Positions 14,714 to 47,302 of a DNA stretch of 64,000 nt are shown one piece after another (within the stretch, counting starts at the first letter, position 1; every line of letters begins with the position of its first letter). Made by a program: the position numbers and the translations under genes. Location: assembly GCA_001567115.1 (NCBI GenBank), contig LMZT01000169.1:46-64045 (forward strand), read 5' to 3'. The DNA comes from Candidatus Hinthialibacteria bacterium OLB16 (GTDB lineage: Bacteria > Hinthialibacterota > Hinthialibacteria > OLB16). Under the pieces are notes generated by a model. It made no database searches and was not told the DNA's origin. It saw only the letters and a program-made list of their open reading frames with translations.

Positions 14714-14736
14714 ATACAGGGCGATCCGGAGAAATC

Positions 14737-15791: not shown

Positions 15792-15843
15792 CGGGAAAAT
15801 CGTATCCCGGCAGGTTTCACTAAAAGAGGAGGCGGGAAAAGTC

Positions 15844-31700: not shown

Positions 31701-31701
31701 C

Positions 31702-34059
31702 ATGAAGCTTCTGGTGACCCATGTAGTGCGTGCCGGCTGGCGCATTCGATACCGCCTTGCAGCGGTGGCACTGGTGGTTGCGGCTGGATTCGGAATCTAT
31801 GCGGGTGTCTATTCAGCCATCGATCTCCTGTTCGATCGTCGAAACCAGGAGTTTGAGGAAGGGCATGTGGCGGACCTTGAAGTCCGTTTTGCTCCGGAAG
31901 ATTCCCAGCGAATCCCAGATCTCGGCAGCCTGCCAGGCATCGCTGAATCTGAAAGCCGGCTGGTCTTCCCCGGCCAGATGATGCTGGCGGATCAACCACC
32001 GCTGCTGACTTTGATGGTCACGATCGACCCGGTCAATGGAGGCCATATCAACCGGCTGAAGATCCTGGAAGGCGAGGGGATCTCCCGGGACAAACCGGAC
32101 CATGTCGTCATTGATCGCAACATGGCCGCTTTCCATCATCTCAAGCCAGGGGATTCCATCGAACTGGTTATGGCCGATGAGTCCTACCACCTGAAGGTAT
32201 GCGGGATCGGCCTCTCGCCGGAGTTCCTTCTTGCACCCGCCAACCCGCGAGTTTTCATTCCCTCCAAAGGCTCCCTGGGGGTGGTGTATGGGCTTCCCCA
32301 GTTGATTCAGGAACGGGTTGGGCTGCCGATGGTCAACAGCCTGCTGATCCGGCTTAAGCCCGGAGAATCTGTCGAAAAGTGGACCGATGAAATCCTCTCG
32401 AAGCTCGAAGGGCAGCTCCTGCTCGATCAGGTGATTCCCAGCACTGAGCAGTTCGGGAGCCGTTTCCTCGAATTAAGCCTGAATGCATTCCGTGTCTGCC
32501 TCCCGGCGCTGGTGATTGTTTTTGACCTGACTGCCTTTCTGGTGACATTCTTTTTGCTCTTTCAATGGATTGTTCAGGAACGCCGTGAGATCGGCAACCT
32601 GATGGCTTTCGGCTACGACCGTGGGGTGATTGGCCTGGCCTATCTGATTCCGGTGGCGATCCTGGGGATCATCGGCAGTGTGGTGGGCCTGGCGGTTGCG
32701 CTGGCAGCCTCCTGCCTTTTTTCAACCAATTATGCCGATTCCATCGGTTTTCCTCATCCGGAGCTGGCACTCATTCCACACCATATCCTGGTGGGTGTGG
32801 GCGGGGTTGGGGTCATTCTTCTGGCAGCGGTCTCCTGGCCGTTGATCTGGTTATTGCGTCTGACTCCTCTCGAGGCGGTTCGTGAGTCGATGGGGCAGGG
32901 AACTGACCGGCTGGGGATCCTGAAACAGATTCTGGCCTGGCTTCCAGGGCGCATCTGGCTGCGATATGCCATGCGAAATCTGGCGAGAAGAAAATCGATC
33001 TCGGCCATGACCATCCTCTCGGTTGCAGCGGGGTTGGGAGTCACGATCTCCTTCTTCATCAATCTGACTTCGAATGCCGGGACAGCGGTCAACATGATTC
33101 GGAATGATCCCTGGAGTGCCATCCTCGAGTTATTCGCCCCGGTGCCGATTGAAGATGCCCGTGAATTCGAGGCAGTCGATGGAGTTGAGAAGGCTGTTCC
33201 ATTCACCAAACTTTCAGCCCGGCTTGCTGGCCCTTTATCAAAGGAGAACATTGCAATTGGTGGAATTCCTCCGGAATCCGGAATCCGTCAACCGGAAATT
33301 CTGGCTGGCCGGGGCCTGCAGGCGGGGGATCAGGAGGCCCTGGTCCTCGAGAGGAACCTGGCGGAAAAATGTGGTGTACAGATCGGGCAGAAAGTCACGA
33401 TCGATTCCTTCGGAAAGAAAAAAGAAGCAACTGTGGTGGGTTTTCTCTCCGGTGCCCTTCCGGGTGAAGCTTATGTCCCTCTTTCCTGGGCACAGGATAT
33501 CCAGGAGTCCGGGGACCTCTGTTCCGGTTTCTTTCTGATATTCAAGGGAGACCCTGAGCAGACCCGAAAGTCGCTCTTCGAGAAAGGGAATATTGCCCAG
33601 ATTACACTGAAAACAGAGATCGTGGCTAAAATTCTGGAAACCACAGGTGAGAAGGTCGGCATCATCCGCCTCGGAGCGATATTCAGTGTGGTGATTACCC
33701 TCCTGTTTATTTTCTGCAGTGTGTCTTTCACAATCCTTCAGAGGAAGCAGGAATATGTCATGCTGCGGGTGCTCGGGATGAGCGATGGCTCCATTGTCTC
33801 GACCATCATTGCGGAAGTCCTGTTCCTTGGATTGATCGCTGTTTTGCTGGCGATTCCTGTCGGCTACCAGACAGCTCACTTCCTGAACAGCCGTGTCTCG
33901 GAAGCCTGGTTCAATGTGACCCTGGTTGCCGAGATCGGTGATTTTCTGAAAACCCTGATTCCCGGGCTGCTGTTGATGCCGATTGCCGCTCTCGGGGCAA
34001 TCCGGCAGATTTTGCGTGAACCCCTGGACCGAAGCCTGAGAGAACGGCAGTGTGGTTGA
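31702..34059 (+). CDS. ABC transporter permease, FtsX-like, with two FtsX domains and large extracytoplasmic loops
   Basis: 785 aa; two 4-TM FtsX-type bundles; start overlaps the ATPase stop. Confidence 0.75.
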   Translation: MKLLVTHVVRAGWRIRYRLAAVALVVAAGFGIYAGVYSAIDLLFDRRNQEFEEGHVADLEVRFAPEDSQRIPDLGSLPGIAESESRLVFPGQMMLADQPPLLTLMVTIDPVNGGHINRLKILEGEGISRDKPDHVVIDRNMAAFHHLKPGDSIELVMADESYHLKVCGIGLSPEFLLAPANPRVFIPSKGSLGVVYGLPQLIQERVGLPMVNSLLIRLKPGESVEKWTDEILSKLEGQLLLDQVIPSTEQFGSRFLELSLNAFRVCLPALVIVFDLTAFLVTFFLLFQWIVQERREIGNLMAFGYDRGVIGLAYLIPVAILGIIGSVVGLAVALAASCLFSTNYADSIGFPHPELALIPHHILVGVGGVGVILLAAVSWPLIWLLRLTPLEAVRESMGQGTDRLGILKQILAWLPGRIWLRYAMRNLARRKSISAMTILSVAAGLGVTISFFINLTSNAGTAVNMIRNDPWSAILELFAPVPIEDAREFEAVDGVEKAVPFTKLSARLAGPLSKENIAIGGIPPESGIRQPEILAGRGLQAGDQEALVLERNLAEKCGVQIGQKVTIDSFGKKKEATVVGFLSGALPGEAYVPLSWAQDIQESGDLCSGFFLIFKGDPEQTRKSLFEKGNIAQITLKTEIVAKILETTGEKVGIIRLGAIFSVVITLLFIFCSVSFTILQRKQEYVMLRVLGMSDGSIVSTIIAEVLFLGLIAVLLAIPVGYQTAHFLNSRVSEAWFNVTLVAEIGDFLKTLIPGLLLMPIAALGAIRQILREPLDRSLRERQCG

Positions 34060-34144: not shown

Positions 34145-35152
34145 TCAGTTACAACGGGCGTATCTCCTCATTTCATGGAGGTTTTCATGGGGAGTGTCTC
34201 TCGGAACTTCACAACCTGCAGAGACAACATAATTTGGACCGCTTTCCTTGTGGCACCTTTCTGTTTCTCTGAGGACAAAATCCGGGGTTCCATTTCTCAG
34301 GACTGAGACCGGATCGATGTTTCCGAGCAAAACCTGCCCGGGACCCATTCTGTCCCGCGCTTCGCTTACCGGGTTGAGATAATCGAGATCGACTATTTCA
34401 CATCCCAGCTGGCCGATTCCTTCGGACAGGTGGCGTGTGTTTCCGCAGATATGCAGGCGAACCCTTCCACCCATGGCATGGATGCCATCCACAAGTTTCT
34501 TCTCATACGGCCAGATCAGGTCCTGATAGAATTTCTTTCCTACCAGGGATGCAGCTGCATCTCCCATGCCGATGATATCCGCCCCGGCTTCGATCTGCGC
34601 CTTTGCGAAACACAACTCCATTTCGAGGATGAATTCAAACAGGTCGCGGACAAATCCAGGATCATCATAGAAATCCAGCAGGATCGTGTTGATTCCACGC
34701 AAATCCGCAGCTTCCGCGCATGGCCCTTCCACCCAGCCTTCAACCAGCTTGTCATTTTTGACCTTGTCTTTGAGCAGGGCCACTCCTTCGACACGGTCCT
34801 GCATCCGCCCGCCTCCCAGCGGATCTGGAACCTTCAATCGGGCAAGCGATTTTTTGTCATGCAGGAGGGCATGGGATTCATCGATGGCGGGGGGTTGATC
34901 TTCAAAGTAAACAACTCTCGCACCGCAATCCGAGGCTTCCCGTGCCGGATCGGATATGGTCGAAACATGGTCGATATCGAATGTTTCGGCCACATGCAGC
35001 TGGCATCTCGCCAGGACACGATGGTCCCGGGCATAATCCCCATATTTCTCACCGGTGAGGCCTGCCGCGAACATCATTGTAATCGGCATGAAAGGCAGGG
35101 AATCGGTTGGCTTTCCTTCAATCGTGTTCAGAACTCTCTCCAGACCATTCAT
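34145..35152 (-). CDS. Uroporphyrinogen decarboxylase (URO-D) family protein (MtaA/CmuA-like methyltransferase fold)
   Basis: Start MNGLERVLNTIEGKPTDSLPFMP preceded by a GAGGAGG RBS; URO-D fold conserved regions. Confidence 0.65.
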   Translation of the reverse strand: MNGLERVLNTIEGKPTDSLPFMPITMMFAAGLTGEKYGDYARDHRVLARCQLHVAETFDIDHVSTISDPAREASDCGARVVYFEDQPPAIDESHALLHDKKSLARLKVPDPLGGGRMQDRVEGVALLKDKVKNDKLVEGWVEGPCAEAADLRGINTILLDFYDDPGFVRDLFEFILEMELCFAKAQIEAGADIIGMGDAAASLVGKKFYQDLIWPYEKKLVDGIHAMGGRVRLHICGNTRHLSEGIGQLGCEIVDLDYLNPVSEARDRMGPGQVLLGNIDPVSVLRNGTPDFVLRETERCHKESGPNYVVSAGCEVPRDTPHENLHEMRRYARCN

Positions 35153-35381
35153 GTTCGAATCCTCCTCGCTTCGGGAATGCCTCGATCTTACATCTTTACC
35201 CAGCTGGATAGCAGGTGCCCCGCCTGTTTTTTCCCGGGTCCGAGGCCTCCCCTTCGAAAGGTATTGATACCTCTCCAGACCCATACAACTTGCAACTGGC
35301 GGTATCAAGAGATAAATTACAACCATCTTGTCCGAAAAAGAAATGAACACATCGACCGGGTGAAATCAGGCTTTGAATTGA

Positions 35382-36779
35382 ATGATGCTGCGCCGTATAT
35401 CTGGTTTTTTGGTACTCCTTCTAGCCTTTTCACTCCTGGTGGCCTGGCGCTGTATTTCTCCGCGGATGGCCACTTCGCCACGGCTACCGATTCCAGCCAA
35501 CCACCCCTCTGCACAAACAAGCGGTGCTTCGGAGGGAAACCCGGGATCACTCAGTGTGGGGACAGGCAAACCCGGGCCTGAAACTGGTGTGTGGCCCTGT
35601 TTTCGAGGTCCAGCTCGCAATGGGATTGTCACCTCTCCACGAATTACAGCCTGGCCGGAAAAAGGTTTGCAGCCTCTCTGGAAAATCAAGGCAGGGGAAG
35701 GCCATGCGGGTGTGGCCATTGATTCCGGACGGGTGTTCCTTCTCGACTATGATGAGAGCCGGAAAGAGGATGCCATTCGCTGCCTGTCATTCACCACAGG
35801 AGAAGAGATCTGGCGCTATTCCTATTCGGTTAAAATCAAGCGGAACCATGGCATGTCGAGAACAGTTCCCGCTGTCGCCGGGGATTATGTGGTCACACTC
35901 GGCCCCAAGTGCCATTTATGCTGCCTGCAGGCTGCAAGCGGCGAACTGGTCTTCAAAAAGGATCTGGTGAAGGAATACGGCACCCGCATCCCGGAGTGGT
36001 ATGCCGGCCAATGCCCCTTGATCGATGATGGCCGTCTGATCCTTGCGCCGGGAGGCTCCTGCCTGATGACCGCAATCGAACTGGCTACTGGAAACACCCT
36101 CTGGCAGACCCCGAACCCGGAGGGCTGGCAGATGAGCCACTCCTCGATCCTGGCAATCGATTTCGAAGGGGAACGGATGTACATCTGGTGCTCATCCGAT
36201 GGAGCGGTCGGAATCCGAGCGGCGGATGGGGCACTGCTGTGGTCACTGCCCGAATGGAAAATCAAAATCGCTACCATCCCCACCCCCATCGAGATCGGTC
36301 CGGGAAAAATCCTGTTCACAGGCGGATATAATGCCGGAGCGGCAGCCTATCAGCTCGAACACCATGAAGGTGGAATTCGCCCAGCCGAGGTCTTTCGTTG
36401 CGATGCAAAAACCTATGGATCCGACCAGCAGACTCCGGTTTTCCATAATGGCCTTGTTTTCGCTGTGATTCCGGGCGGGAAACCAGCCTGTCTGACTCCT
36501 GATGGGAAAAGACAGTGGATTGAGGAGGATTACAACTTCGGTTTAGGCCCGTATCTGCTTTTCGATGACAAGATGCTGATCCTCGATGATGATCACAACA
36601 AGCCTGGGGAGTTGACCCTTTTCCAGATCGAGCCTGCAGGGTTGAAGCGTCTTGCCGGTGCAAAAGTCATCGAAGGTCATGATGCCTGGGCGCCGATGGC
36701 CTATGCCGATGGGCGGATCATTCTCCGGGATGCCACCACACTGGTGTGCCTGGATGTGTCAGGAAGTGGGGCTCCATGA
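35382..36779 (+). CDS. PQQ-like beta-propeller repeat protein (BamB/YVTN-type), signal-anchored
   Basis: N-terminal hydrophobic segment, repeated W-x-Y/F-x-G beta-propeller blades (LWKIKAGEGHAGVAIDSGRVFL, LWQTPNP..., LLWSLPEW...). Confidence 0.65.
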   Translation: MMLRRISGFLVLLLAFSLLVAWRCISPRMATSPRLPIPANHPSAQTSGASEGNPGSLSVGTGKPGPETGVWPCFRGPARNGIVTSPRITAWPEKGLQPLWKIKAGEGHAGVAIDSGRVFLLDYDESRKEDAIRCLSFTTGEEIWRYSYSVKIKRNHGMSRTVPAVAGDYVVTLGPKCHLCCLQAASGELVFKKDLVKEYGTRIPEWYAGQCPLIDDGRLILAPGGSCLMTAIELATGNTLWQTPNPEGWQMSHSSILAIDFEGERMYIWCSSDGAVGIRAADGALLWSLPEWKIKIATIPTPIEIGPGKILFTGGYNAGAAAYQLEHHEGGIRPAEVFRCDAKTYGSDQQTPVFHNGLVFAVIPGGKPACLTPDGKRQWIEEDYNFGLGPYLLFDDKMLILDDDHNKPGELTLFQIEPAGLKRLAGAKVIEGHDAWAPMAYADGRIILRDATTLVCLDVSGSGAP

Positions 36780-37708
36780 AAAACCTGACTGCCTTCCTCA
36801 AAACCTTCTGTGGGCCGGTTCTGCTGATTCTGGCTGGCATGGCATTTGGCTACTTTGCCACCCTCAAAGCCTATCCGCCTTCCCCCCATTCCGAGGGCAA
36901 ACCAGCGGCCTCAGTCCAGCTCAAATGCATCACCATCAGCCCGGATGACCGTATTTATGTGGGAGGATCCTTTGGGATTGCTGAGGTGAATACGGACCTG
37001 CAATTGAAATCACTCTTTGAACTCCCGGAAGTGGCCCAGGCTCTGGCGGCTGACACGGAGGGGAATTTTTACATTGGTTACCCGGCTGCAATTGAGAAAA
37101 GGGACTCGAAAGGGGACCTGCTGCTGCGCTGGGGGCGAGGGGGATGCGGTGGGGATGCATTCAGTTATGTTACTGGCATTGCAGTCGATGCCTCCAATGT
37201 CTTCGTCGCCGATGCCGGGCTCCGGACTGTTTTCCGGTTTTCAACCGATGGCATTCCCCTGAATGAAATATCCGGAAAGACAACAGGAGCCACAGGCACC
37301 GGTTTCTTCGTTCCAACCCCCTATTTCGATTGTGCTGTCAAAGATCAGTCCCTGTATGTCACTAATCCTGGCTGCCTGAGGGTCGAGCGCTATACCTATA
37401 AGGGGGATCTGCTCGGCTACTGGGAGCAGTCATTCGATGATCCGGACCATTTTCCCGGCTGCAGCAATCCGACACACCTGGCCATTTTCCCTGACCTGCA
37501 TGTTGCCGCTTCTCAAAAAGGGAAAGCCTATGTCCGGATTTACACAAGCGAGGGCAAGCCGGTTCTCGATCTCGGGCGGGATATTTTTCCTGAAAGCACA
37601 CGAGGCCTTGATGCAGCGGTAGACAGCAAAGGCCTGCTGTATGTAGTCGATCCACATGCACTTTGTGTCCGTAAGTTCGATATCTCAGCTGCGGCGGGAA
37701 AATCATGA
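36776..37708 (+). CDS. NHL-repeat beta-propeller protein with N-terminal TM anchor
   Basis: ATGA overlap with the upstream gene; TM helix FCGPVLLILAGMAFGYF; NHL-like blades (FYIGYPAAIEKRDSKGDLLLRWG, VTGIAVDASNVFVADAG, LLYVVDPHALCVRKFD). Confidence 0.6.
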   Translation: MKNLTAFLKTFCGPVLLILAGMAFGYFATLKAYPPSPHSEGKPAASVQLKCITISPDDRIYVGGSFGIAEVNTDLQLKSLFELPEVAQALAADTEGNFYIGYPAAIEKRDSKGDLLLRWGRGGCGGDAFSYVTGIAVDASNVFVADAGLRTVFRFSTDGIPLNEISGKTTGATGTGFFVPTPYFDCAVKDQSLYVTNPGCLRVERYTYKGDLLGYWEQSFDDPDHFPGCSNPTHLAIFPDLHVAASQKGKAYVRIYTSEGKPVLDLGRDIFPESTRGLDAAVDSKGLLYVVDPHALCVRKFDISAAAGKS

Positions 37709-37744
37709 ACCGAACCGAGCCGCACATCATCCTGATGGGAGGAG

Positions 37745-38317
37745 ATGAAGATGAGTAAACCAGATCCAGCCGAGGGCCGAAGATCCTTTCTTGAAAAAAT
37801 GACCAAAGGAGTCAGCTTCTTTGCCTTGGGAGGAGTGACCGGCAAGCTGCTTTCCAATGCCCTGCGTGAAGAAATGGTCTGGCAGATCGATCCACTGAAA
37901 TGTATTCAGTGTGGCAATTGTGCGACTGCCTGTGTCCTGACCCCCTCCGCAAGCAAATGTTACCATGATTTTTCGATGTGTGGTTACTGCCGGGTCTGTA
38001 CCGGATTCTTTCCAACCGATCCGACCACACTGGATGAAGGTGCGGAGAATCAGCTCTGCCCGGTCGGAGCGATCCAGAGGAAATTCGTCGAAGAGCCTTA
38101 TTATGAATATGAGATCGATCGAACACTCTGCATCGGGTGCGCACGCTGCGCCAAAGGGTGCACATCCTATGGGAATGGCTCCCTGTATATGCAGATCGAT
38201 CGCACCCTGTGTGTGAACTGTAACCAGTGCGCCATAGCGCTGGTTTGTGAAGGCAAAGCATTTTCAAGAGTGCCTGTGGAGCAACAGTATGTCCTGAAAG
38301 GCTCCAGAATGTCATGA
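37745..38317 (+). CDS. Tat-exported ferredoxin-type protein with four [4Fe-4S] motifs (NapG/MauM-like)
   Basis: Twin-arginine motif GRRSFLEK then a hydrophobic region; four CxxCxxCxxxC(P) clusters (CIQCGNCATAC, CGYCRVCTGF, CIGCARCAKGC, CVNCNQCAIALVC). Confidence 0.8.
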   Translation: MKMSKPDPAEGRRSFLEKMTKGVSFFALGGVTGKLLSNALREEMVWQIDPLKCIQCGNCATACVLTPSASKCYHDFSMCGYCRVCTGFFPTDPTTLDEGAENQLCPVGAIQRKFVEEPYYEYEIDRTLCIGCARCAKGCTSYGNGSLYMQIDRTLCVNCNQCAIALVCEGKAFSRVPVEQQYVLKGSRMS

Positions 38318-39423
38318 AGGGCTTTGGGGTCGCATGTTGCCTGCTGCTGGCGGCCATTCCAGGCGGGTATGCCGAACGCAGGTTCCCACCTCCGGACTTT
38401 GAAACCGGCTACACCCAGCCACCGGTTGTTTTCCAGGAGGTTCGGACCCCTGTATCGCAATATGTTGACCTCACTCTGCTGGTCGTCTGTCTGGCCATTG
38501 GAACCTGGCTGCTGCATTACCGTCGGAGCCGGCGTGGAATTTTTCTCCTGGGGCTGTTTGCAGTCCTCTACTTCGGTTTTTATAAAAATGGCTGCATCTG
38601 CCCGATCGGGTCGATTCAGAATGTGACACTCGCACTGCTGGATCCCCATTACCCCATCTCTCTTGCTGTCATCGGGATATTCATTGCGCCTCTTTTGTTC
38701 TCTCTCTTTTATGGAAGGGTATTTTGTGGAGGAGTTTGCCCGCTGGGGGCAATCCAGGATCTTTTTCTGTTCCGGACCCTGAGGGTTCCACGGTGGCTCG
38801 AGGGAAGCCTGGGGCTGTGCCGTTATTTTTACCTCGGCATTGCCATCTATACAGTGGCAGAGTATTCGCGCTTTGTGATCTGCGAATACGATCCCTTTGT
38901 GGGCTTTTTCCGTATGAGCGGACTCCCCTGGAAATTAGGCCTGGGTGCGGCGCTGCTGGGAATCGGGCTGTTTATCCCACGCCCCTATTGCCGCTACCTG
39001 TGCCCTTATGGCGGCTTGTTATCACTGCTGGCGCGCAGGTCATCCACCTGGGTGAGAATCACCCCCACAGACTGCACAAACTGCACATTGTGTGATGCGG
39101 CCTGCCCTTATGAGGCCATTCTCCGCCCGGAAGAACCGATTCGCCCTGAAGGAAGCTGGCGCTTCAAAATTATTCTGGCCAGCCTGGGGGTGATGGCGCT
39201 GTTTATTGCATCTGGATTCTATCTTTTCGGAACCGCCCTGAGTGGAATCCTCCTCAGTACCTGGTTTGGTGTCGTTATCGCTTCAAAAATGATGACCCAG
39301 GCCTTTTCGAACCGCCGCAACCACTTTGAGACCGATCACGCGGCCTGTTTATCCTGTGGCCGCTGTTACGAATACTGCCCTTATGGAAAGACAATGCAGG
39401 AGATCGATGCACATGCTGGATAA
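38314..39423 (+). CDS. Integral-membrane iron-sulfur protein, NapH/MauN/CcoG-like
   Basis: 4 TM helices with two CxxxCP motifs (FCGGVCPLG, YCRYLCPYGG) and two C-terminal ferredoxin motifs (CTNCTLCDAACPYE, CLSCGRCYEYCPYG); ATGA overlap with the upstream gene. Confidence 0.8.
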   Translation: MKGFGVACCLLLAAIPGGYAERRFPPPDFETGYTQPPVVFQEVRTPVSQYVDLTLLVVCLAIGTWLLHYRRSRRGIFLLGLFAVLYFGFYKNGCICPIGSIQNVTLALLDPHYPISLAVIGIFIAPLLFSLFYGRVFCGGVCPLGAIQDLFLFRTLRVPRWLEGSLGLCRYFYLGIAIYTVAEYSRFVICEYDPFVGFFRMSGLPWKLGLGAALLGIGLFIPRPYCRYLCPYGGLLSLLARRSSTWVRITPTDCTNCTLCDAACPYEAILRPEEPIRPEGSWRFKIILASLGVMALFIASGFYLFGTALSGILLSTWFGVVIASKMMTQAFSNRRNHFETDHAACLSCGRCYEYCPYGKTMQEIDAHAG

Positions 39424-41140
39424 TCTCCTGGCATTGTTTGACAGGAAAACTACAATTTACCTTGTCGCTGCAAGCGGAGTGTTTTCGCTGGTTGTCATAA
39501 TTGGCCTCTGTTTTGATGGGCTGTGGTATCGCCCGATGCCTGTCTTTGATGTCCCGCTTCTTGAGATGAGGGAGACACTGAGAAAGAACCCTCAAGACCA
39601 GGCCTTGCGTGAAGAGATTCGCCATCTGGACCAGGTGGTTCGCCAGGATTTCATCACCACAAGAAAGCGTCTGCTGGTTGGAGGATACCTCCTGTTCTTC
39701 AGCCTCCTGATTTTTGTCCTGTCGTTGCGAAGATGGACTGTGCTGCAGCAGAAATTGCCGGAACCCCTCCTGTTGTCTCAGCTGGCCGAGCATCCCCAGG
39801 CACAAATGAATTTATTCAGAACTCTCGCCTTTTTCTGCATCCCGCTGGCGCTGCTCTCACTCTATGGGCTTTCATATCTGAAGCACCACCCCCAAATCGT
39901 AAATGAGGCAGGTCTTCAGGCTCCTCAACCACCAGGGCCACCGCTCGAAATTCTGGTGCCTGACAATCAGAAATGGCCTCAACTGCGCGGGCCAAAGGGG
40001 TCAGGGGTTGTCGATGATCCCAATCTGCCTGTTTCATGGGATGTCGAGAAGGCTGAGAATCTTGTCTGGAAAGTTGAAATTCCGGGGAAAGGCCACAGCT
40101 CGCCAGTGATCTGGGGGGATCGCCTTTATATCACGACCGGGGATTTCGAAAGCCGGAAGGTCCTCTGCTACCAGCGAAGTGATGGGAACCTGGTGTGGTC
40201 CTGTGCACTGAGGACCAATGCACAGCTGGATGAAGAGCTGAAGGAAGATGAGGGGGATACCGGCCTGGCTGCTCCGACTGCTGTCACCGATGGACATTAC
40301 ATTGTCGCATTCTTCGGAACCAATGAGATTGCCGGAATCGACAGAGAGGGCCGCCAGATCTGGTCAAGATGGTTCGGCCCTCCGGACAGTGATTTCGGAA
40401 TTGCATCTTCTCCCATTCTCTCCGGGTCAACCGTTTACCTGCAGCTGGATCAGGGAAGCAAAGAAAAGAAGCATTCCATGCTCTATGCTCTGGATATTGC
40501 CAGCGGAAAGCCCCGTTGGGAGATCCCCCGTGAGGTCCCCTGCTCCTGGAGCACTCCGATTCTGGTTGAAAGCAATGGACGGAGCGAACTGATCACTGCC
40601 GCCGATCCATGGGCCATATCGTATGATCCGGTCAGTGGAAAGGAAATCTGGCGCGCGAAAGTTTTGTCCGGTGCAGTTGCACCCATGCCCGCATCCTGCA
40701 ATGGATTCTTTTTTACAGCGACAGAATATTCACAGCTGGCCGCCATCAAAACGGGTGGGCAAGGCGATATCACCGAAACCCATGTGGCCTGGACCATGGA
40801 AAGTGACCTCCCGGATGTAGCCGGCATGGTCACTGATGGAAAACTGCTGATCCTTCCCAATGGGACCGGTAAGGTGCGCTGCTTCGATGTATTGACTGGA
40901 AAACGAATCTGGACTCAGGAGTATGACAATGGTTTCTGGTCAAATCCAACCCTGAATGGTGATCTTGTCTATATGACTGATATGGAAGGGACGACTTTCA
41001 TTTTCAAACTGGCTGATAAATACGAAGAGGTTGGCCAGGGGAAATTCGGAGAGCCTGTTCTGACTTCATTTGCTGTCGCAGACTCACGTTTCTATGTCCG
41101 CGGCGAAAAATACCTTTATTGCCTGGGGAAACCCCAATGA
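39407..41140 (+). CDS. Membrane-anchored PQQ-like beta-propeller repeat protein
   Basis: Two N-terminal TM helices then an 8-blade PQQ-type propeller (LVWKVEIPGKGHSSPVIWGDRLYITT ..., KPRWEIP..., KEIWRAKV..., KRIWTQEYD...). Confidence 0.7.
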   Translation: MHMLDNLLALFDRKTTIYLVAASGVFSLVVIIGLCFDGLWYRPMPVFDVPLLEMRETLRKNPQDQALREEIRHLDQVVRQDFITTRKRLLVGGYLLFFSLLIFVLSLRRWTVLQQKLPEPLLLSQLAEHPQAQMNLFRTLAFFCIPLALLSLYGLSYLKHHPQIVNEAGLQAPQPPGPPLEILVPDNQKWPQLRGPKGSGVVDDPNLPVSWDVEKAENLVWKVEIPGKGHSSPVIWGDRLYITTGDFESRKVLCYQRSDGNLVWSCALRTNAQLDEELKEDEGDTGLAAPTAVTDGHYIVAFFGTNEIAGIDREGRQIWSRWFGPPDSDFGIASSPILSGSTVYLQLDQGSKEKKHSMLYALDIASGKPRWEIPREVPCSWSTPILVESNGRSELITAADPWAISYDPVSGKEIWRAKVLSGAVAPMPASCNGFFFTATEYSQLAAIKTGGQGDITETHVAWTMESDLPDVAGMVTDGKLLILPNGTGKVRCFDVLTGKRIWTQEYDNGFWSNPTLNGDLVYMTDMEGTTFIFKLADKYEEVGQGKFGEPVLTSFAVADSRFYVRGEKYLYCLGKPQ

Positions 41141-41973
41141 TTGTCACAGGTCAACAGGAGATCGTGCTTGCTGAGGTTGACCGGATTGTAGAAACAGTCG
41201 GCGGCAATGGCCAGCAGGTTATACAAATTCTCCAGGCGATACAGGAAAAATACCGCTATCTTCCCACAGAAGCGCTGGAGCGTGTTTGTGAGCTCACTGA
41301 TATATCACCGGCACGCATTGCAGGGGTTGCATCATTTTATTCCCAGTTCCGATTCAACCCGGTGGGGCTGCATCAGATCCGGGTGTGCCATGGAACTGCC
41401 TGCCATGTCAAAGGCTCAGCTCTGGTCCAGGATTCCATTGAACGGCACCTTGATATCGGAATGGACAGGGACACGACAACCGATGGCCTTTTCACAGTTG
41501 AAAAAGTTGCCTGTCTGGGATGCTGCACTCTTGCTCCGGTTGTTCAGATCGATGACCTTGTTTATGGGGGTCTGACACCCGACAAGGTTCCTGTAGTCAT
41601 CAGAAGCTTCCTGAATAATCCACAGCTGCGCAATGGCTCGGTTGAAACACAGGCAGATGATGAAGCAATCGAGAATGTTTTCGGTGAAATTCGGATCGGA
41701 CTGGGATCCTGCTGTGTTGCCAAAGGAAGCGACCGGTTGAAAACCGCGCTCGAAGATGCGATTCGAGAAACAGGCGCACGCGCTGTCGTCAAAAGGGTTG
41801 GCTGTGTGGGAATCTGCCATCAGACCCCACTCATCGAAGTGATTGCTCCCGACCAGACATCTCATCTCTATGCCGACCTCAAACCGACTGAAGCAAAGAA
41901 CCTTGTCGTCAAACATTTTCCCGAGGCGGTCGGTTTTCAAGAAAATCAGCCATTCTCTCAACCGTGTGCTTGA
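41137..41973 (+). CDS. NuoE-like [2Fe-2S] subunit fused to a thioredoxin-like [2Fe-2S] ferredoxin domain (HndA+HndB-like)
   Basis: NuoE motifs VCHGTACHVKGS ... CLGCCTLAPVVQID; second domain IGLGSCCVAKGS ... VGCVGICHQTPLIEV. The 3' end overlaps the next ORF in a different frame (possible fusion, see findings). Confidence 0.75.
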   Translation: MIVTGQQEIVLAEVDRIVETVGGNGQQVIQILQAIQEKYRYLPTEALERVCELTDISPARIAGVASFYSQFRFNPVGLHQIRVCHGTACHVKGSALVQDSIERHLDIGMDRDTTTDGLFTVEKVACLGCCTLAPVVQIDDLVYGGLTPDKVPVVIRSFLNNPQLRNGSVETQADDEAIENVFGEIRIGLGSCCVAKGSDRLKTALEDAIRETGARAVVKRVGCVGICHQTPLIEVIAPDQTSHLYADLKPTEAKNLVVKHFPEAVGFQENQPFSQPCA

Positions 41974-43507
41974 AAAAATATTCCAGGATGATGCCTGGGA
42001 ACCGGTTGACAGATTTTCCATTCATGTTCGTGATGAACCGGTTTCTGCCTTTCTGAGCCGCCAGATCCACATTGCGACAGAGCATGGAGGAACACTGAAT
42101 CCATTTGATCTCGAGGAGTACATCCACCACCAGGGATTCGCTGCACTTAGAAAGTGCCTTGAATCGTATACGCCCGCCCAGATCATCGACCAGATTGCTG
42201 AAAGCGGATTGAGAGGAAGAGGGGGCGCCGGTTTTCATTCAGCGACAAAGTGGCGAAAGGTCCGCGAATCTCCCGGAGAGATCAAATATGTCATCTGTAA
42301 TGGGGATGAGGGTGATCCAGGAGCATTCATGGACCGGATGCTGCTCGAATCCTTCCCGTTCCGTGTCATCGAAGGAATGATTATCGCGGCTTATGCTGTC
42401 GGCGCATCCGAGGCTATCTTCTATGTGCGTGCAGAATACCCGCTGGCTTTGAAAGTCCTCCGGCGAGCGCTGGCGCTTTGTGAAGGGAATGGTTATATCG
42501 GCGGCAATATCCTGGGGAGTGATTACTCAATTCATTTCCATATCGCCGAGGGAGCCGGAGCCTTTGTTTCCGGGGAAGAAACTGCACTGCTGGCATCAGT
42601 TGAAGGGAAGAGAAGCATCCCGAGAATCAGGCCGCCTTACCCTGCGGAAAAAGGGCTATGGGATCAGCCCACGCTCATCAACAATGTCGAAACATATTCC
42701 CTGGTGCCATGGATTCTGCGTGAAGGGGCTGAGTCCTTTGCAGCCCTTGGAACAGCCACCAGCAAAGGGACCAAAGTGTTTGCCCTTGCAGGAAAAGTGA
42801 AACGGGGTGGTTTGATCGAAGTGCCGATGGGGATCACCATCCGGGAGGTTGTTAATGAAATTGGTGGCGGTGTTGCAGATGGAAGGCAGTTCAAAGCGGT
42901 TCAGGTAGGTGGCCCGTCTGGCGGCTGTGTTCCTGCAGCACTTGCTGATACTCCCATAGATTTCGAAGCGCTCCAGTCAATCGGGGCCATCATGGGATCC
43001 GGTGGGCTGGTCGTTTTGGATGATACGGATTGCATGGTGGACATTTCCAGATACTTTCTGCAGTTCACTCAGAATGAGAGCTGTGGGAAATGCACACTGT
43101 GCCGCATTGGTTCCAAGCGGATGCTTGAAATTGTCACCCGTTTGTGTGAAGGGAAAGGGCGGCCACAGGATATAGGCATTCTCGAAGAGCTGTCTGCCGG
43201 AATGAAAGCGGCCAGCTTCTGTGGTCTGGGAAAAACCGCCCCCAATCCGGTCTTGACTTCGCTCCGTTATTTTCGTGAGGAATATCTTGCGCATGTGGAA
43301 GGCCGCTGCCCGGCCGGAAAATGCAAGGCATTGATCCGCTACAGGATTGAGGACCACTGTATTGGCTGCACAATCTGCGCACAGCACTGTCCAGTCGGTG
43401 CAATCCATTCAATCCCCTACCAGCTGCATACCATCGATGATTCACTCTGTGTGCGTTGCGACATGTGCCGTTCGGCCTGTCCCGAGAAAGCAGTCAAGGT
43501 GGTTTGA
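41843..43507 (+). CDS. NuoF-like NAD(P)H-binding flavoprotein subunit with C-terminal 2x[4Fe-4S] ferredoxin domain (HydB/HndC/StnB-like)
   Basis: SGLRGRGGAGF, FMN/NADH-binding GDEGDPGAF, ESCGKCTLCR 4Fe-4S, C-terminal CIGCTICAQHCP and CVRCDMCRSACP. The true start is uncertain: either GTG near 41957 or fused to the upstream gene through a T4 homopolymer frameshift at 41934-41937. Confidence 0.8.
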   Translation: MLPTRHLISMPTSNRLKQRTLSSNIFPRRSVFKKISHSLNRVLEKIFQDDAWEPVDRFSIHVRDEPVSAFLSRQIHIATEHGGTLNPFDLEEYIHHQGFAALRKCLESYTPAQIIDQIAESGLRGRGGAGFHSATKWRKVRESPGEIKYVICNGDEGDPGAFMDRMLLESFPFRVIEGMIIAAYAVGASEAIFYVRAEYPLALKVLRRALALCEGNGYIGGNILGSDYSIHFHIAEGAGAFVSGEETALLASVEGKRSIPRIRPPYPAEKGLWDQPTLINNVETYSLVPWILREGAESFAALGTATSKGTKVFALAGKVKRGGLIEVPMGITIREVVNEIGGGVADGRQFKAVQVGGPSGGCVPAALADTPIDFEALQSIGAIMGSGGLVVLDDTDCMVDISRYFLQFTQNESCGKCTLCRIGSKRMLEIVTRLCEGKGRPQDIGILEELSAGMKAASFCGLGKTAPNPVLTSLRYFREEYLAHVEGRCPAGKCKALIRYRIEDHCIGCTICAQHCPVGAIHSIPYQLHTIDDSLCVRCDMCRSACPEKAVKVV

Positions 43508-43510
43508 CCC

Positions 43511-45499
43511 ATGCCAGATATGGTTTCACTGATAATTGATGGCATACCGGTCCAGGTGGCCTCGGGAGAGACGATCCTCCAGGCTGCAGAGAAATCCGGC
43601 ATTCAAATCCCCACACTCTGCTTCATGGAAGGCCTTGCCGACCTGGAATCCTGCGGTGTGTGTGTGGTCGAAGTGGAGGGAAACCCAAATCTTCTTCCAT
43701 CCTGTGTATCGAGATGCCTGCCTGATATGAAAATCCGTACTGATTCCGAAAAGGTTCGAAAGGCCAGGAAGCTGGCACTCGAACTGTTGTTGTCGGACCA
43801 TCTCGGGGATTGCCAGGCGCCCTGTGAACTGGCCTGTCCTGCGGAAATTGACATCCCCGAGTTCATTCGGCAGATACGATACAACCATCCGGACAAAGCC
43901 CTGCGAGTTATTCTGGAAAAGATCGCCTTTCCGGGAGTTCTCGGCAGGATCTGTCCCAAGTTCTGTGAAGGTGTCTGTCGTCGTGGGGAATATGATGAGC
44001 CTGTTTCTATCTGCTCCCTGAAAAGATTTCCGGCAGACATCGTTCCACAGGATATTAAACAGCAGCAGCACTCTGCTGTTGTCAGGTCCGGAAAGAAAGT
44101 TGCAATCCTCGGTTCTGGTGTCGTTGGCCTGACTGCAGCCTATTATCTCACACTCGCCGGGCATGAGTGTATTGTCTTTGAGGCTGCACCGAGGCCTGGC
44201 GGGGCGATGAGGAATATCATTCCGGAATTTCGACTTCCCGCACAGGTGATTGATGATGAAATTGCGGACATTCAATCACTTGGTGTCAAGATTCACTGCA
44301 ACCAGGCCCTCGGAAAGGATGTTTTCCTGGATGACCTGCGAAATGAATATGATGCAATTCTGCTGGCTATTGGTGCAAATGGGGAAAAACATCCAACCTT
44401 CTCCGGTTCTGATCTGGGCCAATCGTGTTTCAACTTCCTCGAACAGGTTGCCTATGGTGCCTGCACATCGGTTGAGAAAAATGTAGTCATCATCGGCTCC
44501 GGGCCTACCTCTCTGGATTCTGCAAGAACATGCCTGCGGCTGGGAGCTGAAGAAGCCACCATGATAATCCCGTCTTCGCAGCGCACCCATTTCTTCTTTA
44601 CACCGCAACTGCAATACGCGCTTGAAGAAGGTGTCAAGATTCATTATGACAGTGAGATATTATCCACTGCCATCGGAGCAAACCGGCAGATTTCGTGTGA
44701 AGTGAATACCTCTGGAGATCGTTGGGTGATAACTGCGGACCAGATTTTCCTCTCCGGGCATGTCGAGGCTGATGTCCAGCTGCTGGAAGAACTCGGATTC
44801 AAAACCCTCCGGGGAGGAGTCCAGATTGATAAGAAGACCCTGGAAACAAATATCCCGGGGGTCTTTGCGGCCGGCAACATCGCCCAGTCCGGCCGGTATG
44901 CGGTCCATGGCTCGGCTTCAGGCCGGATTGTTGCCGAGTCTATTCATCGTTACCTCACTGGCATCCCGCCACAGCCCGAATGGATCAATGTTCGGATGCA
45001 GCATCTGACAGAGGATGAAAAGGAACTTCTGGGGAAAGACCGGCATGACATTTCACGATTGATGGATTTGATTCTTTCTCCTGAATTCCGTTCCCATAAT
45101 TTCGAGGAATTCAATCAGGGACTCACTACAGATGCAGCGATCAAGGAAGCGGCACGCTGCCTGAACTGTGATTGCGCCAGCAAAAGAGAGTGCTCACTTC
45201 GCATCCAGTCGACATTATGCGATGCAAATCCACGGGCATTTCGTGGAGACAGGCCGGCCTTTGAAAAAGATGATTCACACCCGGATATTGTTTATGAATC
45301 CGGCAAGTGCATCAAATGCGGGCGCTGCATTGCTATTGCGGAGCAGCACCGTGAAAAGTATGGCTTGACCTACATCGGCAGGGGATTTTCAGTCAAAGTG
45401 CAGACACCGATCATGGGAAAAATCGCCGAGGGCCTTTCTCTGGTTGCGATTGAATGTGCCAAGGCCTGTCCGACCGGAGCACTCTCCAGAAAGCGGTGA
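43511..45499 (+). CDS. Fusion of a NuoG-N-terminal-type [2Fe-2S]/[4Fe-4S] ferredoxin domain with a glutamate-synthase-small-subunit-like (GltD/NfnB) FAD/NAD(P)H oxidoreductase (StnA-like)
   Basis: N-terminus IDGIPVQVASGETILQAAEKSGIQIPTLCF ... CGVCVVEVEG; dinucleotide folds KKVAILGSGVVGLTAAYYL and VVIIGSGPTSLD; AGNIAQ; C-terminal Cys cluster CIKCGRC. Confidence 0.8.
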   Translation: MPDMVSLIIDGIPVQVASGETILQAAEKSGIQIPTLCFMEGLADLESCGVCVVEVEGNPNLLPSCVSRCLPDMKIRTDSEKVRKARKLALELLLSDHLGDCQAPCELACPAEIDIPEFIRQIRYNHPDKALRVILEKIAFPGVLGRICPKFCEGVCRRGEYDEPVSICSLKRFPADIVPQDIKQQQHSAVVRSGKKVAILGSGVVGLTAAYYLTLAGHECIVFEAAPRPGGAMRNIIPEFRLPAQVIDDEIADIQSLGVKIHCNQALGKDVFLDDLRNEYDAILLAIGANGEKHPTFSGSDLGQSCFNFLEQVAYGACTSVEKNVVIIGSGPTSLDSARTCLRLGAEEATMIIPSSQRTHFFFTPQLQYALEEGVKIHYDSEILSTAIGANRQISCEVNTSGDRWVITADQIFLSGHVEADVQLLEELGFKTLRGGVQIDKKTLETNIPGVFAAGNIAQSGRYAVHGSASGRIVAESIHRYLTGIPPQPEWINVRMQHLTEDEKELLGKDRHDISRLMDLILSPEFRSHNFEEFNQGLTTDAAIKEAARCLNCDCASKRECSLRIQSTLCDANPRAFRGDRPAFEKDDSHPDIVYESGKCIKCGRCIAIAEQHREKYGLTYIGRGFSVKVQTPIMGKIAEGLSLVAIECAKACPTGALSRKR

Positions 45500-45627: not shown

Positions 45628-47084
45628 TCAGCCCAGCCCCAGCCTTTGAATCTTTTTCAATAACCCCCGCCGGGTCAGCCCAAGCATCTCCGCTGCATGG
45701 GTTTTGTTTCCATTCGTTTCCTGCAGAGCTTTCCGAATCAGACGTTTTTCCAGGAGATTGGTGACCTCTCTGAGAGATGAGGAATCAGCTTCGAGGTCCG
45801 GAATGTATGGCGCTTTTCCTAAGGAAAGCAGAATTTTTCGAGAGACCAATTCTTCTGTAAGGATGGAGTCGTATTTCCCCAGGATGACCATCTGCTCAAT
45901 TTCATGTTTGAGCTGGCGGCAATTGCCAGGCCAGGAGTAATCAAGAAACATCCGCATGACCCTGGGGTGGATCTTTTTAGGCTCCAAACCCGCTTCCTTA
46001 ACCGCCTGATCCAGGAAATACTCCACCAGAATAGGGATCTCCTCAGGGCGTTCCTGGAGTGATGGAACTGTGATCGTCAACACACTCAGCCGGTAGAAGA
46101 GGTCCTCACGGAACTTTTCCTTCTGCGATCCAGCGTTCCAAATCCTGGTTGGTTGCAGCAATGATGCGCGCATCCACTTGAATGGTGCGTGTCCCACCCA
46201 CCCGTTCAAAAACGCCCCGATTCCAGAAACCTGAGCAGCTTGGCTTGTATGTTCATGGGGGCATCGCCGATCTCATCCAGAAGAAGAGTTCCCCCCTCAG
46301 CCATTTCGACCATCCCCTTCTTGATGGAGTTAGCCCCGGTAAATGCCCCTTTTTCATGGCCAAAGAGCTCGGATTCCATCAATGTTTCCGTCATGTTGGC
46401 ACAGTTCAAATCAATAAAGGGTTTGCTTTTCCGGCTCGAGTTTTCATGAAGAATTTCGGCAATCAGATTTTTTCCCGTGCCAGTCTCTCCCTGAATCAGC
46501 ACCGGAGCATCGTTATCGGAAAACAGTTCCAGACGGCGCCGGAGATCCTTCATCGCTTTCGATGCACAGATAAGGCGGTCGAAAGCAAACATCTGAGACA
46601 AGTTGCGTGTTTTCCCCGGTTCTAAAGCCAGCGGGACATTGAAAGTGCGGCCTGCGATATCCTCCACAAGCTCCATCACCGCAAAGATTTCCCCACTCTT
46701 ATCACGAAGTGGGATTGCCACAACCTCAAAATGCTTGAAGACAATGCCTTCCTGATTGCGGCTGGGAGCAACACGCCGGACTAATTTTCCGGTCTGGAAT
46801 GCAATTTTCGAGGCACACCAGGGGCAGACTTCCTCGCGTTGATCGTCATTCATATAGGCCTGAAAACAAAATGCCGCCGCCCGAGTTGGTCTATCCGGGA
46901 AAAATGACTGCTGGTGCTGGTTGACGTAGATAATCCGCATATCGCGGTTGACGATATTGATCCCGAAGGGGAGTGCATCTAAAGCGGACAGCGCAAAATC
47001 CTGCACTGAGAAAGGGAGTAAGTCCTCCACAATCCGCTCACCATTAGAGCCGGTCAGACTGGTGATAGATTTCTTTGTCGACAT
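45628..47084 (-). pseudogene. Sigma-54-dependent transcriptional activator (PAS sensor, AAA+ and Fis-type HTH), interrupted by two 1-nt homopolymer insertions near 46208-46212 and 46115-46118
   Basis: ORFs 46206-47084 and 45628-46209. A third frame between them reads [31 protein letters not shown], the conserved sigma54-interaction region. Walker A GETGTGK, GAFTGA motif, ESELFGHEKGAFTGA, C-terminal AAEMLGLTRRGL HTH. Confidence 0.85.
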
Positions 47085-47286: not shown

Positions 47287-47302
47287 TGGCCTGGTCTTTG
47301 CT
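47287..47302 (+). promoter_or_regulatory. Candidate sigma-54 (-24/-12) promoter TGGCCT-N5-TTGCT upstream of the prepilin-like/LamG genes
   Basis: tTGGCCtggtcTTTGCt matches the TGGCAC-N5-TTGCW consensus with correct GG to GC spacing. It lies about 100 bp upstream of the 47401 ATG and is divergent from the sigma54 activator gene. Confidence 0.55.

Follow-up and report, generated by a model that had tools for sequence, protein, structure and literature searches.

Seven closely packed genes at positions 35382-45499 (+ strand) of a 64,000-nucleotide (nt) stretch of contig LMZT01000169.1 from Candidatus Hinthialibacteria bacterium OLB16 (the window in what follows) bring together three putative periplasmic propeller proteins (G1, G2 and G5), a polyferredoxin with a twin-arginine translocation (Tat) signal (G3), a NapH-like integral membrane iron-sulfur protein (G4), and two cytoplasmic proteins (G6/7 and G8) related to flavoproteins of the electron-bifurcating Bfu family. 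On balance we favor the view that the seven genes encode one membrane-spanning, haem-free redox complex that would connect the Bfu module to the periplasmic propellers, because the genes are tightly coupled across phyla, the NfnA-like protein is degenerate, and several of the components occur as fusions. None of the seven proteins contains a CxxCH haem-binding motif, and no molybdopterin or cytochrome c families are present among the genes called within 10 kb of the cluster.

The open reading frames (ORFs) of the run have the coordinates given in Table 1, with nearly no intergenic space. An earlier note on this DNA had described seven to eight genes, all on the + strand and joined by ATGA or other short overlaps, and the junctions as read from the sequence agree with this: there are ATGA overlaps at 36776-36779 (G1/G2), 38314-38317 (G3/G4) and 41137-41140 (G5/G6), a 17-nt overlap between G4 and G5 (the G5 ATG is at 39407, with an alternative ATG at 39413), a TGAcccATG arrangement at 43505-43513 with a 3-nt spacer in front of G8, and a gap of 36 nt between G2 and G3. 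The domain calls of the note are likewise reproduced by Pfam and NCBIfam. The eighth gene is not real, however, as ORFs 41119-41973 and 41843-43507, which overlap by 130 nt, are one NuoE-thioredoxin (Trx)-NuoF gene that is broken in the window assembly. Base-by-base comparison with six 99%-identical assemblies of the same organism (NCBI GCA_023384255.1 and GCA_013360365.1 among them) locates an extra T at 41916 within a T-run of the window, and a single protein of 789 amino acids (aa) is called at this position in all six; the cluster therefore has seven genes, and both an eight-gene count and a programmed frameshift at 41843-41973 are ruled out.

The arrangement recurs far beyond this organism. 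A pattern scan of one genome per species matched at least 600 stretches, with a G4 relative confirmed in at least 599 species genomes (599 of 600 matched stretches), and the best 80 loci were analyzed in detail. These cover the Bacteroidota, Planctomycetota, Omnitrophota, Verrucomicrobiota, KSB1, Calditrichota, Armatimonadia, Spirochaetaceae and Poribacteria, and cultured carriers among the Bacteroidota are Marinifilum fragile, M. flexuosum and Draconibacterium orientale. Searches by tblastn with the seven proteins give colinear matches in most loci. Co-occurrence was counted in the 55 loci with enough flanking sequence, where the five envelope genes (G1-G5) are all present in 48, the NuoEF gene (G6/7) in 47, and G8 in 43, with all seven thresholds passed in 38. 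Spacing is also conserved, with median gaps of 6 nt (G3 to G4), 3 nt (G4 to G5), 4 nt (G5 to G6/7) and 3 nt (G6/7 to G8); the flavoprotein gene usually lies 0-10 bases downstream of the envelope genes, and the G5-G6/7 junction is overlapping in 20 of 52 loci. The neighborhoods of six G4 homologues (41-61% identity) give a similar picture: four contain the same seven genes with different flanks, including one in which the NHL gene is relocated to the end and a Bacteroidales locus with extra propellers, and two contain only the five envelope genes. Flanking genes thus vary by lineage while the order of the cluster persists, and colinear recurrence in dozens of genomes from many phyla indicates that the arrangement is more than chance. 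The earlier note had proposed co-conservation as a check, with the Planctomycetes-Verrucomicrobia-Chlamydiae (PVC) group as its example, and the gene set is kept colinear well outside of those bacteria.

Protein fusions provide a second line of evidence for association. A G1-type propeller is joined to a G2-type NHL propeller in several proteins (P0268, P0270, P0285, P0286 and P0321). A further fusion links the envelope and cytoplasmic parts: in a Puniceicoccaceae locus (L080) the G5 propeller is missing from its usual place, and the N-terminus of the NuoE-Trx-NuoF protein is a hairpin of two transmembrane (TM) helices (TM1-loop-TM2) homologous to that of G5. Because NuoEF is necessarily cytoplasmic the hairpin must end inside, and G5 is therefore predicted to have its N-terminus in the cytoplasm, three helices, and a periplasmic propeller. 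By this predicted topology, the fusion shows that a G5-type hairpin can tether a flavoprotein to the membrane. At 14224-17679 of the same locus a G8-like ORF reads on, with no intervening stop codon, into sequence that weakly matches CCP_MauG (di-haem peroxidase) and cytochrome c; a genuine fusion, a neighboring gene merged by assembly error, or chance could each account for this. MauG-type proteins accompany MauM and MauN in methylamine dehydrogenase clusters.

The cytoplasmic pair is best understood by comparison with solved enzymes. G6/7 contains, in order, a NuoE-type Trx-like [2Fe-2S] domain, a second Trx-like domain, a NuoF domain that binds flavin mononucleotide (FMN), an NADH_4Fe-4S domain, and a C-terminal dicluster domain, as seen from Pfam (Complex1_51K, NADH_4Fe-4S and Fer4_21, plus the Trx-like region) and NCBIfam. 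The corresponding cofactor sites are [2Fe-2S] C1, the Trx-like [2Fe-2S] B5, the FMN/NADH site, [4Fe-4S] B1, and the C-terminal 2x[4Fe-4S] B3/B4. Residues 1-165 form the NuoE/NfnC domain (PF01257, 176 bits) and score 144.6 against the NCBIfam NuoE cut-off of 141, which is the sole function-specific curated cut-off passed by any protein of the window cluster. The remainder matches PDB entries 9bov_B (E = 3e-206), NfnB 9n5u_B (E = 1e-199) and StnB 8oh5_B (E = 3e-197), with the alignment running from about residue 184 through the C-terminus for NfnB and StnB, and in two pieces (184-260 and 287-788) for 9bov_B; it takes in the Trx-like [2Fe-2S] region, the FMN/NADH site with its GRGGAGF motif, the [4Fe-4S] region, and the two C-terminal motifs of the form CxxCxxCxxxCP. 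All sequence features of BfuB and BfuC are therefore present, with the NuoE-type BfuC as the N-terminal domain of the same polypeptide, and the position of the NuoE/NfnC domain at residues 1-165 means that NfnC and NfnB are fused. G8 consists of a NuoG-type [2Fe-2S] N-terminus, an inserted GltD/NfnL-like unit with two [4Fe-4S] clusters, flavin adenine dinucleotide (FAD) and an NADPH-binding Rossmann fold (the Pyr_redox_2 match spans model positions 1-286 of 291), and NuoG-type [4Fe-4S] motifs. Its closest solved relatives are 9bov_A (E = 1e-116), NfnA 9n5u_A (E = 8e-108) and 8oh5_C (E = 2e-103), and the matches reach only residues 5-672 of 1178, 8-701 of 963, and 4-674 of 1172, respectively. 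Because they stop at about residue 672-701 of chains of 963-1178 aa, G8 lacks the NuoG/Fdh-like C-terminal domain. Judged by these matches, the pair is closely related to NfnABC/StnABC, electron-bifurcating enzymes of the Bfu family with solved structures.

In solved NfnABC, NADPH feeds the FAD of NfnA and electrons pass through the NfnA clusters to the B1-FMN-C1 site, with ferredoxin bound between two domains, the C-terminal one of NfnC and the ferredoxin-like one of NfnB (PMC12018979); the enzyme from Sporomusa is reported to be a bifurcating transhydrogenase (PMC7483475). The part of G8 concerned with NADPH is not generally conserved. Orthologues in the Bacteroidota, Planctomycetota and Calditrichota are of 500-540 aa (about 37 of 46 orthologues) and lack the equivalent of window residues ~289-411, the second Rossmann (NADPH) subdomain, with the iron-sulfur motifs and the FAD part retained. 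The subdomain is kept in the clade of the window (loci L007, L008, L009, L013 and L014, which are Omnitrophota-related). The usual cytoplasmic partner is thus a BfuBC core with a short BfuA, and NADPH use is a putative lineage-specific addition. The NAD(P)H-oxidizing module of Stn, Bfu or Hnd type named in the earlier note is accordingly of the NfnABC/Stn type within the Bfu family, as proposed, and its NADPH part holds fully only for the clade of the window.

The membrane component G4 belongs to the NapH-like proteins in a broad sense. It matches PF12801 (Fer4_5) with 47.2 bits against a cut-off of 22, and is below the curated NCBIfam cut-offs for NapH (NF007013/TIGR02163; 69.2 bits against 234, and 67.3 against 213). 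It shares 27% identity with Escherichia coli NapH, and both CX3CP motifs (C138/C142 and C226/C230, on the cytoplasmic side) and both ferredoxin motifs align. The latter (C254-C264 and C345-C355) form a cytoplasmic 2x[4Fe-4S] domain that is interrupted by two TM helices. There is a cleavable-looking signal peptide, often ending in AxA, followed by an invariant periplasmic RFPPPDFxxGY motif and seven hydrophobic segments as seen by hydropathy and in alignments, rather than the four TM helices noted earlier. Peculiar to the family are a GCxCP motif (C94, C96) and a CxYDP motif (C190, D193), contributing three cysteines and an aspartate. The finding that the G4 motifs do not vary among the 80 genome loci is partly circular, since they were part of the scan patterns, and it was therefore re-tested on 120 homologues; the CX3CP motifs and the C-terminal CxxCxxCxxxCP motifs are invariant in all 120, as are C94, C96, C190 and D193, for which the homologues had been retrieved independently of these motifs. 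Alignments with E. coli NapH and Sinorhizobium meliloti NosR reveal no equivalents of these four residues. Because of the AxA-type signal peptide, the positive-inside loops, the hydropathy and the NapH alignment, we predict that the CX3CP and ferredoxin motifs are inside and the three cysteines and aspartate outside. A PDB profile search found no solved homologue of the membrane part, the ferredoxin motifs giving the only matches, and a search for plasmid copies or annotated relatives gave only distant matches to NosR/NirI and YccM. The G4 family has thousands of metagenomic homologues.

The predicted partner of G4 on the outer side is G3, in which an RRxF twin-arginine motif is invariant and 17 cysteines are conserved in four [4Fe-4S]-type motifs among 80 sequences. 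The earlier description of G3 as NapG-like is correct as to type, and a closer likeness is not supported: the BLASTP match to E. coli NapG (E = 7e-5) is weak and covers the signal region and one motif. The best solved relative is WorS (9mqx_E, E = 3e-6), the four-cluster subunit of the WorABCSL Bfu complex.

The three propellers differ in their conserved features. G1 is held in the membrane by a single N-terminal helix without a lipobox and is eight-bladed in an AlphaFold2 (AF2) model (predicted local distance difference test score, pLDDT, 88). Its invariant loop motifs, KRNHGMSRTP (153-163), PxWYxGQCP (204-212), MsHsS (251-255), QQTP (349-352) and FGLGP (386-390), occupy the equivalent long inter-strand loop in seven successive blades, as seen from conservation and the model, and hence all lie on one face of the propeller. 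Five cysteines are conserved and the vicinal pair C180-C181 is not. This ring of motifs resembles an active site or else a conserved surface for docking, and G1 is the candidate catalytic or docking subunit. Among PDB folds, BamB and tetrathionate hydrolase come closest, at 15-18% identity. G1 and G5 score 23.8 and 46.9 against a BamB cut-off of 285 (TIGR03300/NF008351) and 17.3 and 34.4 against a cut-off of 480 for pyrroloquinoline quinone (PQQ) alcohol dehydrogenases (TIGR03075), and G1 is shorter than the latter by ~130 aa; assignment of either protein as BamB or as a PQQ dehydrogenase is ruled out by these curated scores together with the gene context. The earlier note had allowed that the propellers might be BamB orthologues or unrelated to their neighbors, and the BamB scores of 24-47, the G1-G2 fusions, and the hairpin-NuoEF fusion of L080 speak against both. 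The G1 family is very large, with 512 clusters at E <= 1e-30 in a library clustered at 50% identity and more than 7000 at E <= 1e-10 at 90% identity. A G1-like propeller is also found fused to an alpha-alpha toroid domain of the squalene-hopene-cyclase/prenyltransferase type (P0306), and at locus L009 (1-3000) SQHop_cyclase, polyprenyl synthase and Prenyltrans genes are directly upstream of an ATP-binding cassette (ABC) transporter and the cluster.

G2 contains an N-terminal TM helix followed by a six-bladed NHL-type propeller (AF2 pLDDT 84) with conserved ADAG, PxPYFD, NPG, FxGCxNP and KG motifs. The best folds are TRIM NHL, PknD, PAL and the Vgb lyase at 12-19% identity; the fold search gave generic NHL matches only, and no assignment of G2 as a lactonase or lyase is made. 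In 63 of 68 G5 orthologues the N-terminus contains three hydrophobic segments, not the two helices counted previously, and a PQQ_2-type propeller follows. A periplasmic loop with R72, D75 and R79 is conserved, the propeller has few invariant polar residues, and G5 is likely to be a scaffold or membrane tether.

From the gene content, homologies, motifs, predicted topology, co-conservation and fusions established above, we infer how the proteins could physically assemble and carry electrons. At the inner face, the Bfu module (G6/7 and G8) would exchange electrons with NADH at the FMN and, in the clade of the window, also with NADPH at the FAD, with ferredoxin probably acting at the B3/B4 domain. 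Starting from an NfnA-like G8 that has lost its C-terminal catalytic end, we propose that the cytoplasmic 2x[4Fe-4S] domain of G4 is the docking site for the G8 iron-sulfur chain, or else for the B3/B4 domain of G6/7. Electrons could then cross G4 by way of the inner site formed by the two CX3CP motifs and an outer site at the three cysteines and aspartate, where a cluster may be bound, to reach G3. At the periplasmic end G3 would donate to, or accept from, a substrate site on the anchored propellers, most likely the ring of invariant G1 loops together with the NHL propeller G2, either of which may be catalytic, and G5 would tether and organize the assembly by its three-helix anchor. The net outcome would be that a periplasmic redox reaction serves as the 'third substrate' of a Bfu-type enzyme. 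We lean slightly to outward flow, in which an extracytoplasmic acceptor is reduced at the expense of NADH and reduced ferredoxin, and the system would be an electron sink aided by the membrane potential. The data fit inward flow just as well, with a periplasmic donor of low potential as the electron source; this direction would build membrane potential and could give NADH and reduced ferredoxin by bifurcation. One idea for the substrate is a periplasmic sugar/lactone couple, because G2 relatives carry SGL-type matches and the carriers are polysaccharide degraders. A more ambitious version of the proposal, with a wire made entirely of iron-sulfur clusters without haem and perhaps without quinone, bifurcation or confurcation across the membrane, a novel outer Cys3-Asp cluster in G4, and G1 (with G2) as a new family of cofactor-poor periplasmic redox enzymes, is attractive but in our opinion doubtful.

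The individual parts are of known kinds, and comparison with characterized systems shows where the cluster departs from each. In relation to NfnABC/StnABC (PDB 9bov, 9n5u and 8oh5; PMC7483475, PMC11829005, PMC12018979), G6/7 matches the B-subunit domains and G8 the NuoG-like N-terminus plus the GltD/NfnL-like unit; unlike in those enzymes, NfnC and NfnB form one polypeptide, G8 stops at the point where NfnA goes on into its Fdh/NuoG-like C-terminal domain, and the NADPH Rossmann subdomain is deleted in most phyla that have the cluster. Nfn and Stn are also soluble, whereas the G6/7 and G8 genes are translationally coupled to genes for membrane and periplasmic proteins. With NapGH the cluster shares adjacent overlapping genes for a Tat-exported four-cluster ferredoxin and a membrane protein in which two CX3CP motifs are combined with a cytoplasmic 2x[4Fe-4S] domain. 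G4 departs from NapH in its signal peptide, its RFPPPDF motif, its extra helices, its outer Cys3-Asp residues, and the two helices inside its ferredoxin domain, there is no NapA, NapB or NapC gene within 10 kb, and the likeness of G3 to NapG is no more than generic.

A role as modular carriers that bring electrons across the membrane to or from periplasmic enzymes, among them the propellers NirS and ExaA, has been proposed for NapH-like proteins (Meheust et al. 2021, PMC8238504), and the cluster resembles the NapH-like extracytosolic systems (NosR/NirI, PceC; PMC8238504, PMC5928378) in having a PF12801 membrane iron-sulfur protein together with periplasmic proteins of propeller type, those of the known systems being oxidoreductases that include NosZ, NirS and ExaA. 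Such systems are defined by an ApbE-flavinylated FMN-binding domain (PMC8238504), but no FMN_bind or ApbE matches are present among the Pfam matches of the cluster, in its 10-kb flanks, or among the recurrent neighbor families. The periplasmic hand-over here would instead involve a Tat polyferredoxin and a cysteine-rich outer site that is absent from NosR, and the cytoplasmic partner is a flavoprotein of Bfu type. The WorABCSL complex, in which a short BfuA (WorA) plugs the bifurcating core into a four-cluster ferredoxin chain, WorS (PMC12318220), is similar in combining a BfuBC core, a short non-catalytic BfuA and a [4Fe-4S] ferredoxin-like chain, and G3 is closest to WorS; it is however cytoplasmic and ends in a tungsten enzyme, whereas the far end here is formed by periplasmic propellers and the membrane partner is NapH-like. 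Coupling of Bfu cores to membrane complexes was predicted earlier in the form of Mbh-Bfu and Nuo-Bfu (PMC9304861), whose membrane arms are of the complex-I type, unlike the NapH-like partner here. The Hmc and Tmc complexes of sulfate reducers also bridge two redox pools by means of a periplasmic Tat four-cluster ferredoxin, membrane subunits and a cytoplasmic iron-sulfur protein. The layout is thus shared with Hmc and Tmc, but their multihaem cytochromes c, cytochrome b, NrfD-like subunits and CCG-type protein are absent here.

No function-specific NCBIfam or Pfam family names any of the cluster proteins, with the exception of the NuoE model for the N-terminus of G6/7, and database labels are confined to '4Fe-4S binding protein', 'NosR/NirI', 'polyferredoxin' and 'PQQ-like/BamB'. 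A description of this gene combination was not found in the full-text literature, a search whose coverage leaves out most subscription journals. The impression in the earlier note that this is not a described complex therefore stands: the combination is new, and so are the outer Cys3-Asp residues of G4, the G1 loop motifs, the fusion of NfnC and NfnB alongside a truncated NfnA, and the G5 tether.

Several observations weigh against a single trans-membrane complex, and three other explanations were considered. The least unlikely of these, in our estimation, is linked to quinone: G4 would oxidize quinol or reduce quinone in the manner of NapH, the flavoprotein would serve as a non-pumping NADH (and ferredoxin):quinone oxidoreductase, and the propellers and G3 would be fed by the quinol pool with no continuous wire. 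We know of no established mechanism of electron passage through any member of the NapH family. NapH itself is regarded as the quinol-oxidizing subunit (PMC8238504, after Brondijk 2002), and G4 has the NapH core with its 27% identity and both CX3CP motifs. The flavoprotein genes are furthermore absent from a minority of loci (L010, L012, L046, L063 and L069), where a different donor is required, and because of these loci the envelope module can use another electron source, possibly quinol as in NapGH; as the flavoprotein genes and the NADPH subdomain both vary between loci, the constant core is G1-G5. On the other side, G4 falls far under the NapH cut-off (69 against 234), its additional invariant outer cysteines, which are absent from NapH and NosR, suggest a different hand-over chemistry, no sequence motif for quinone binding is defined in this family, and the tight coupling to the Bfu module is left unexplained. 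Somewhat less probable is that a soluble transhydrogenase of NfnABC type, balancing NADH, NADPH and ferredoxin, lies beside an independent NapGH-like system with which it shares only regulation. The window G6/7 and G8 do hold every cofactor motif of solved soluble NfnABC/Stn and might work alone, and the loci that have envelope genes without flavoprotein genes fit as well. Two independent systems would not be expected to give a G5-G6/7 adjacency that is maintained in at least six phyla (the median gap is 4 nt, and the genes overlap in 20 of 52 loci) while the flanks change, and most G8 orthologues cannot be Nfn enzymes, as they lack the NADPH subdomain, a loss which also means that the cytoplasmic chemistry of a single complex would not be uniform. 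G8 also lacks the C-terminal domain found in every solved NfnA/StnC. The fusion of a G5 hairpin to NuoEF at L080 argues in the same direction, although it is known from one metagenome-assembled genome.

We give the lowest standing to a maturation or maintenance chain, which would keep a periplasmic propeller enzyme or an envelope-building process reduced and active, with the propellers as clients or scaffolds instead of the terminal oxidoreductase; the MacB-type ABC transporter and GT4 glycosyltransferase of the recurrent neighborhood could take part in such a process. The propellers have no recognizable cofactor or metal signature, and the closest folds of G1, G5 and G2 (e.g. BamB and TRIM-NHL) are non-catalytic. 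MauM and MauN accompany methylamine dehydrogenase, and offer an analogy for a maturation role, as does NosR for NosZ. NapH/NosR-type proteins more generally accompany the periplasmic propeller enzymes NosZ and NirS (PMC8238504), and extra PQQ_2 propellers, GT4 glycosyltransferases (28 loci) and a MacB-type ABC ATPase (27 loci) are found beside the cluster in several phyla. However, up to ~19 iron-sulfur clusters and two flavins would be heavy equipment for maintenance, the invariant polar loop motifs of G1 resemble an active site, the ABC and GT4 neighbors are present in only about one third of the loci, and the window permease is not detectably homologous to the permease of ~1100 aa seen elsewhere.

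A single membrane-spanning complex, if that is what the cluster encodes, would bear on two problems. The Bfu enzymes are a recently recognized and mechanistically debated class of electron-bifurcating enzymes, with 17 BfuB clades (PMC9304861), many of which are without an assigned third substrate. The NapH/NosR-type proteins are suspected trans-membrane electron carriers for which a mechanism is lacking. The cluster joins both in one conserved operon that is also present in cultured, tractable Bacteroidota, such that the role of a Bfu core plugged into a membrane and haem-free electron transfer through the bilayer by iron-sulfur clusters are testable together. If the proposal is true, it would provide a function for the very large family of 'PQQ-like/BamB-like' propellers, which are abundant in anaerobes that degrade polysaccharides in sediments, guts and bioreactors, and could reveal an unrecognized extracytoplasmic electron sink or source in the energy metabolism of the carriers.

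Table 1. Genes of the cluster, with coordinates in the window.
Gene and product	Coordinates	Strand	Size	Family matches
G1, propeller	35382..36779	+	465 aa	Pfam PQQ_2 only
G2, TM helix and NHL-type propeller	36776..37708	+	310 aa	Pfam NHL
G3, Tat-exported polyferredoxin	37745..38317	+	190 aa	Pfam Fer4 families
G4, NapH-like integral membrane Fe-S protein	38314..39423	+	369 aa	Pfam PF12801 (Fer4_5)
G5, three-TM-anchored PQQ_2-type propeller	39407..41140	+	~577 aa	Pfam PQQ_2
G6/7, NfnC-NfnB (NuoE-Trx-NuoF) fusion	41137..43507	+	789 aa when intact	
G8, NfnA-like protein	43511..45499	+	662 aa	Pfam Fer2_4, Fer4_20, Pyr_redox_2, Fer4_Nqo3

The extra T in G6/7 is not alone, and six further 1-nt insertions relative to the same six assemblies are present in the window, at 46115, 46208, 46871, 46874, 46888 and 48085. 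Insertions of this type split a sigma-54 activator gene (- strand) into ORFs 45628-46209 and 46206-47084, where the other assemblies have one gene of 483 aa. All seven insertions have the appearance of indel errors in the assembly, though pseudogenes specific to the strain are a possibility. A GH95 fucosidase (N-terminal domain 5956-7176; catalytic and C-terminal domains 7173-8300) and a type I phosphodiesterase (21086-21727 and 21580-23379) are apparently split likewise.

The genes around the cluster show some recurrent patterns. The MacB/FtsX-type ABC ATPase is near the cluster in 27 of 82 loci and the ~1100-aa permease in seven, across several phyla; the GT4 glycosyltransferase is near it in 28 loci, and the extra PQQ_2 propellers are of 370-420 aa (for these ABC, GT4 and propeller neighbors see e.g. 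loci L025, L046, L088, L079, L009 and L052). In the window, ABC_tran and FtsX/MacB_PCD genes are located just upstream of the cluster (30969-34059), with a divergent URO-D family gene (34145-35350, - strand) lying between them and G1, and the ABC ATPase is 42% identical to that of L025. In Draconibacterium orientale and a KSB1 genome, a two-component pair of LytTR type (His_kinase and Response_reg-LytTR; L062 3387-5160 and L056 1445-3209) is located upstream of the cluster and is a possible regulator of it. Control by the neighboring sigma-54 activator was considered and rejected, as there is no -24/-12 match at 35150-35382 and the window-wide count is at chance level; the only such match near the activator gene, at 47287-47302 (TGGCCTGGTCTTTGCT, two mismatches), is upstream of an N_methyl pilin-like gene at 47401 and not of the cluster. 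An Rfam scan of the window at gathering thresholds found only a tRNA at 210-282, with no riboswitch or other RNA upstream of G1, and terminator-like matches are about twice the shuffled expectation in the window, with none at the 3' end of G8. At 13304-18260 the window encodes an L-fucose isomerase C-domain protein, a zinc alcohol dehydrogenase, an FGGY kinase and a class II aldolase, with the GH95 gene upstream, a set that fits a polysaccharide- or fucose-degrading lifestyle of the organism.

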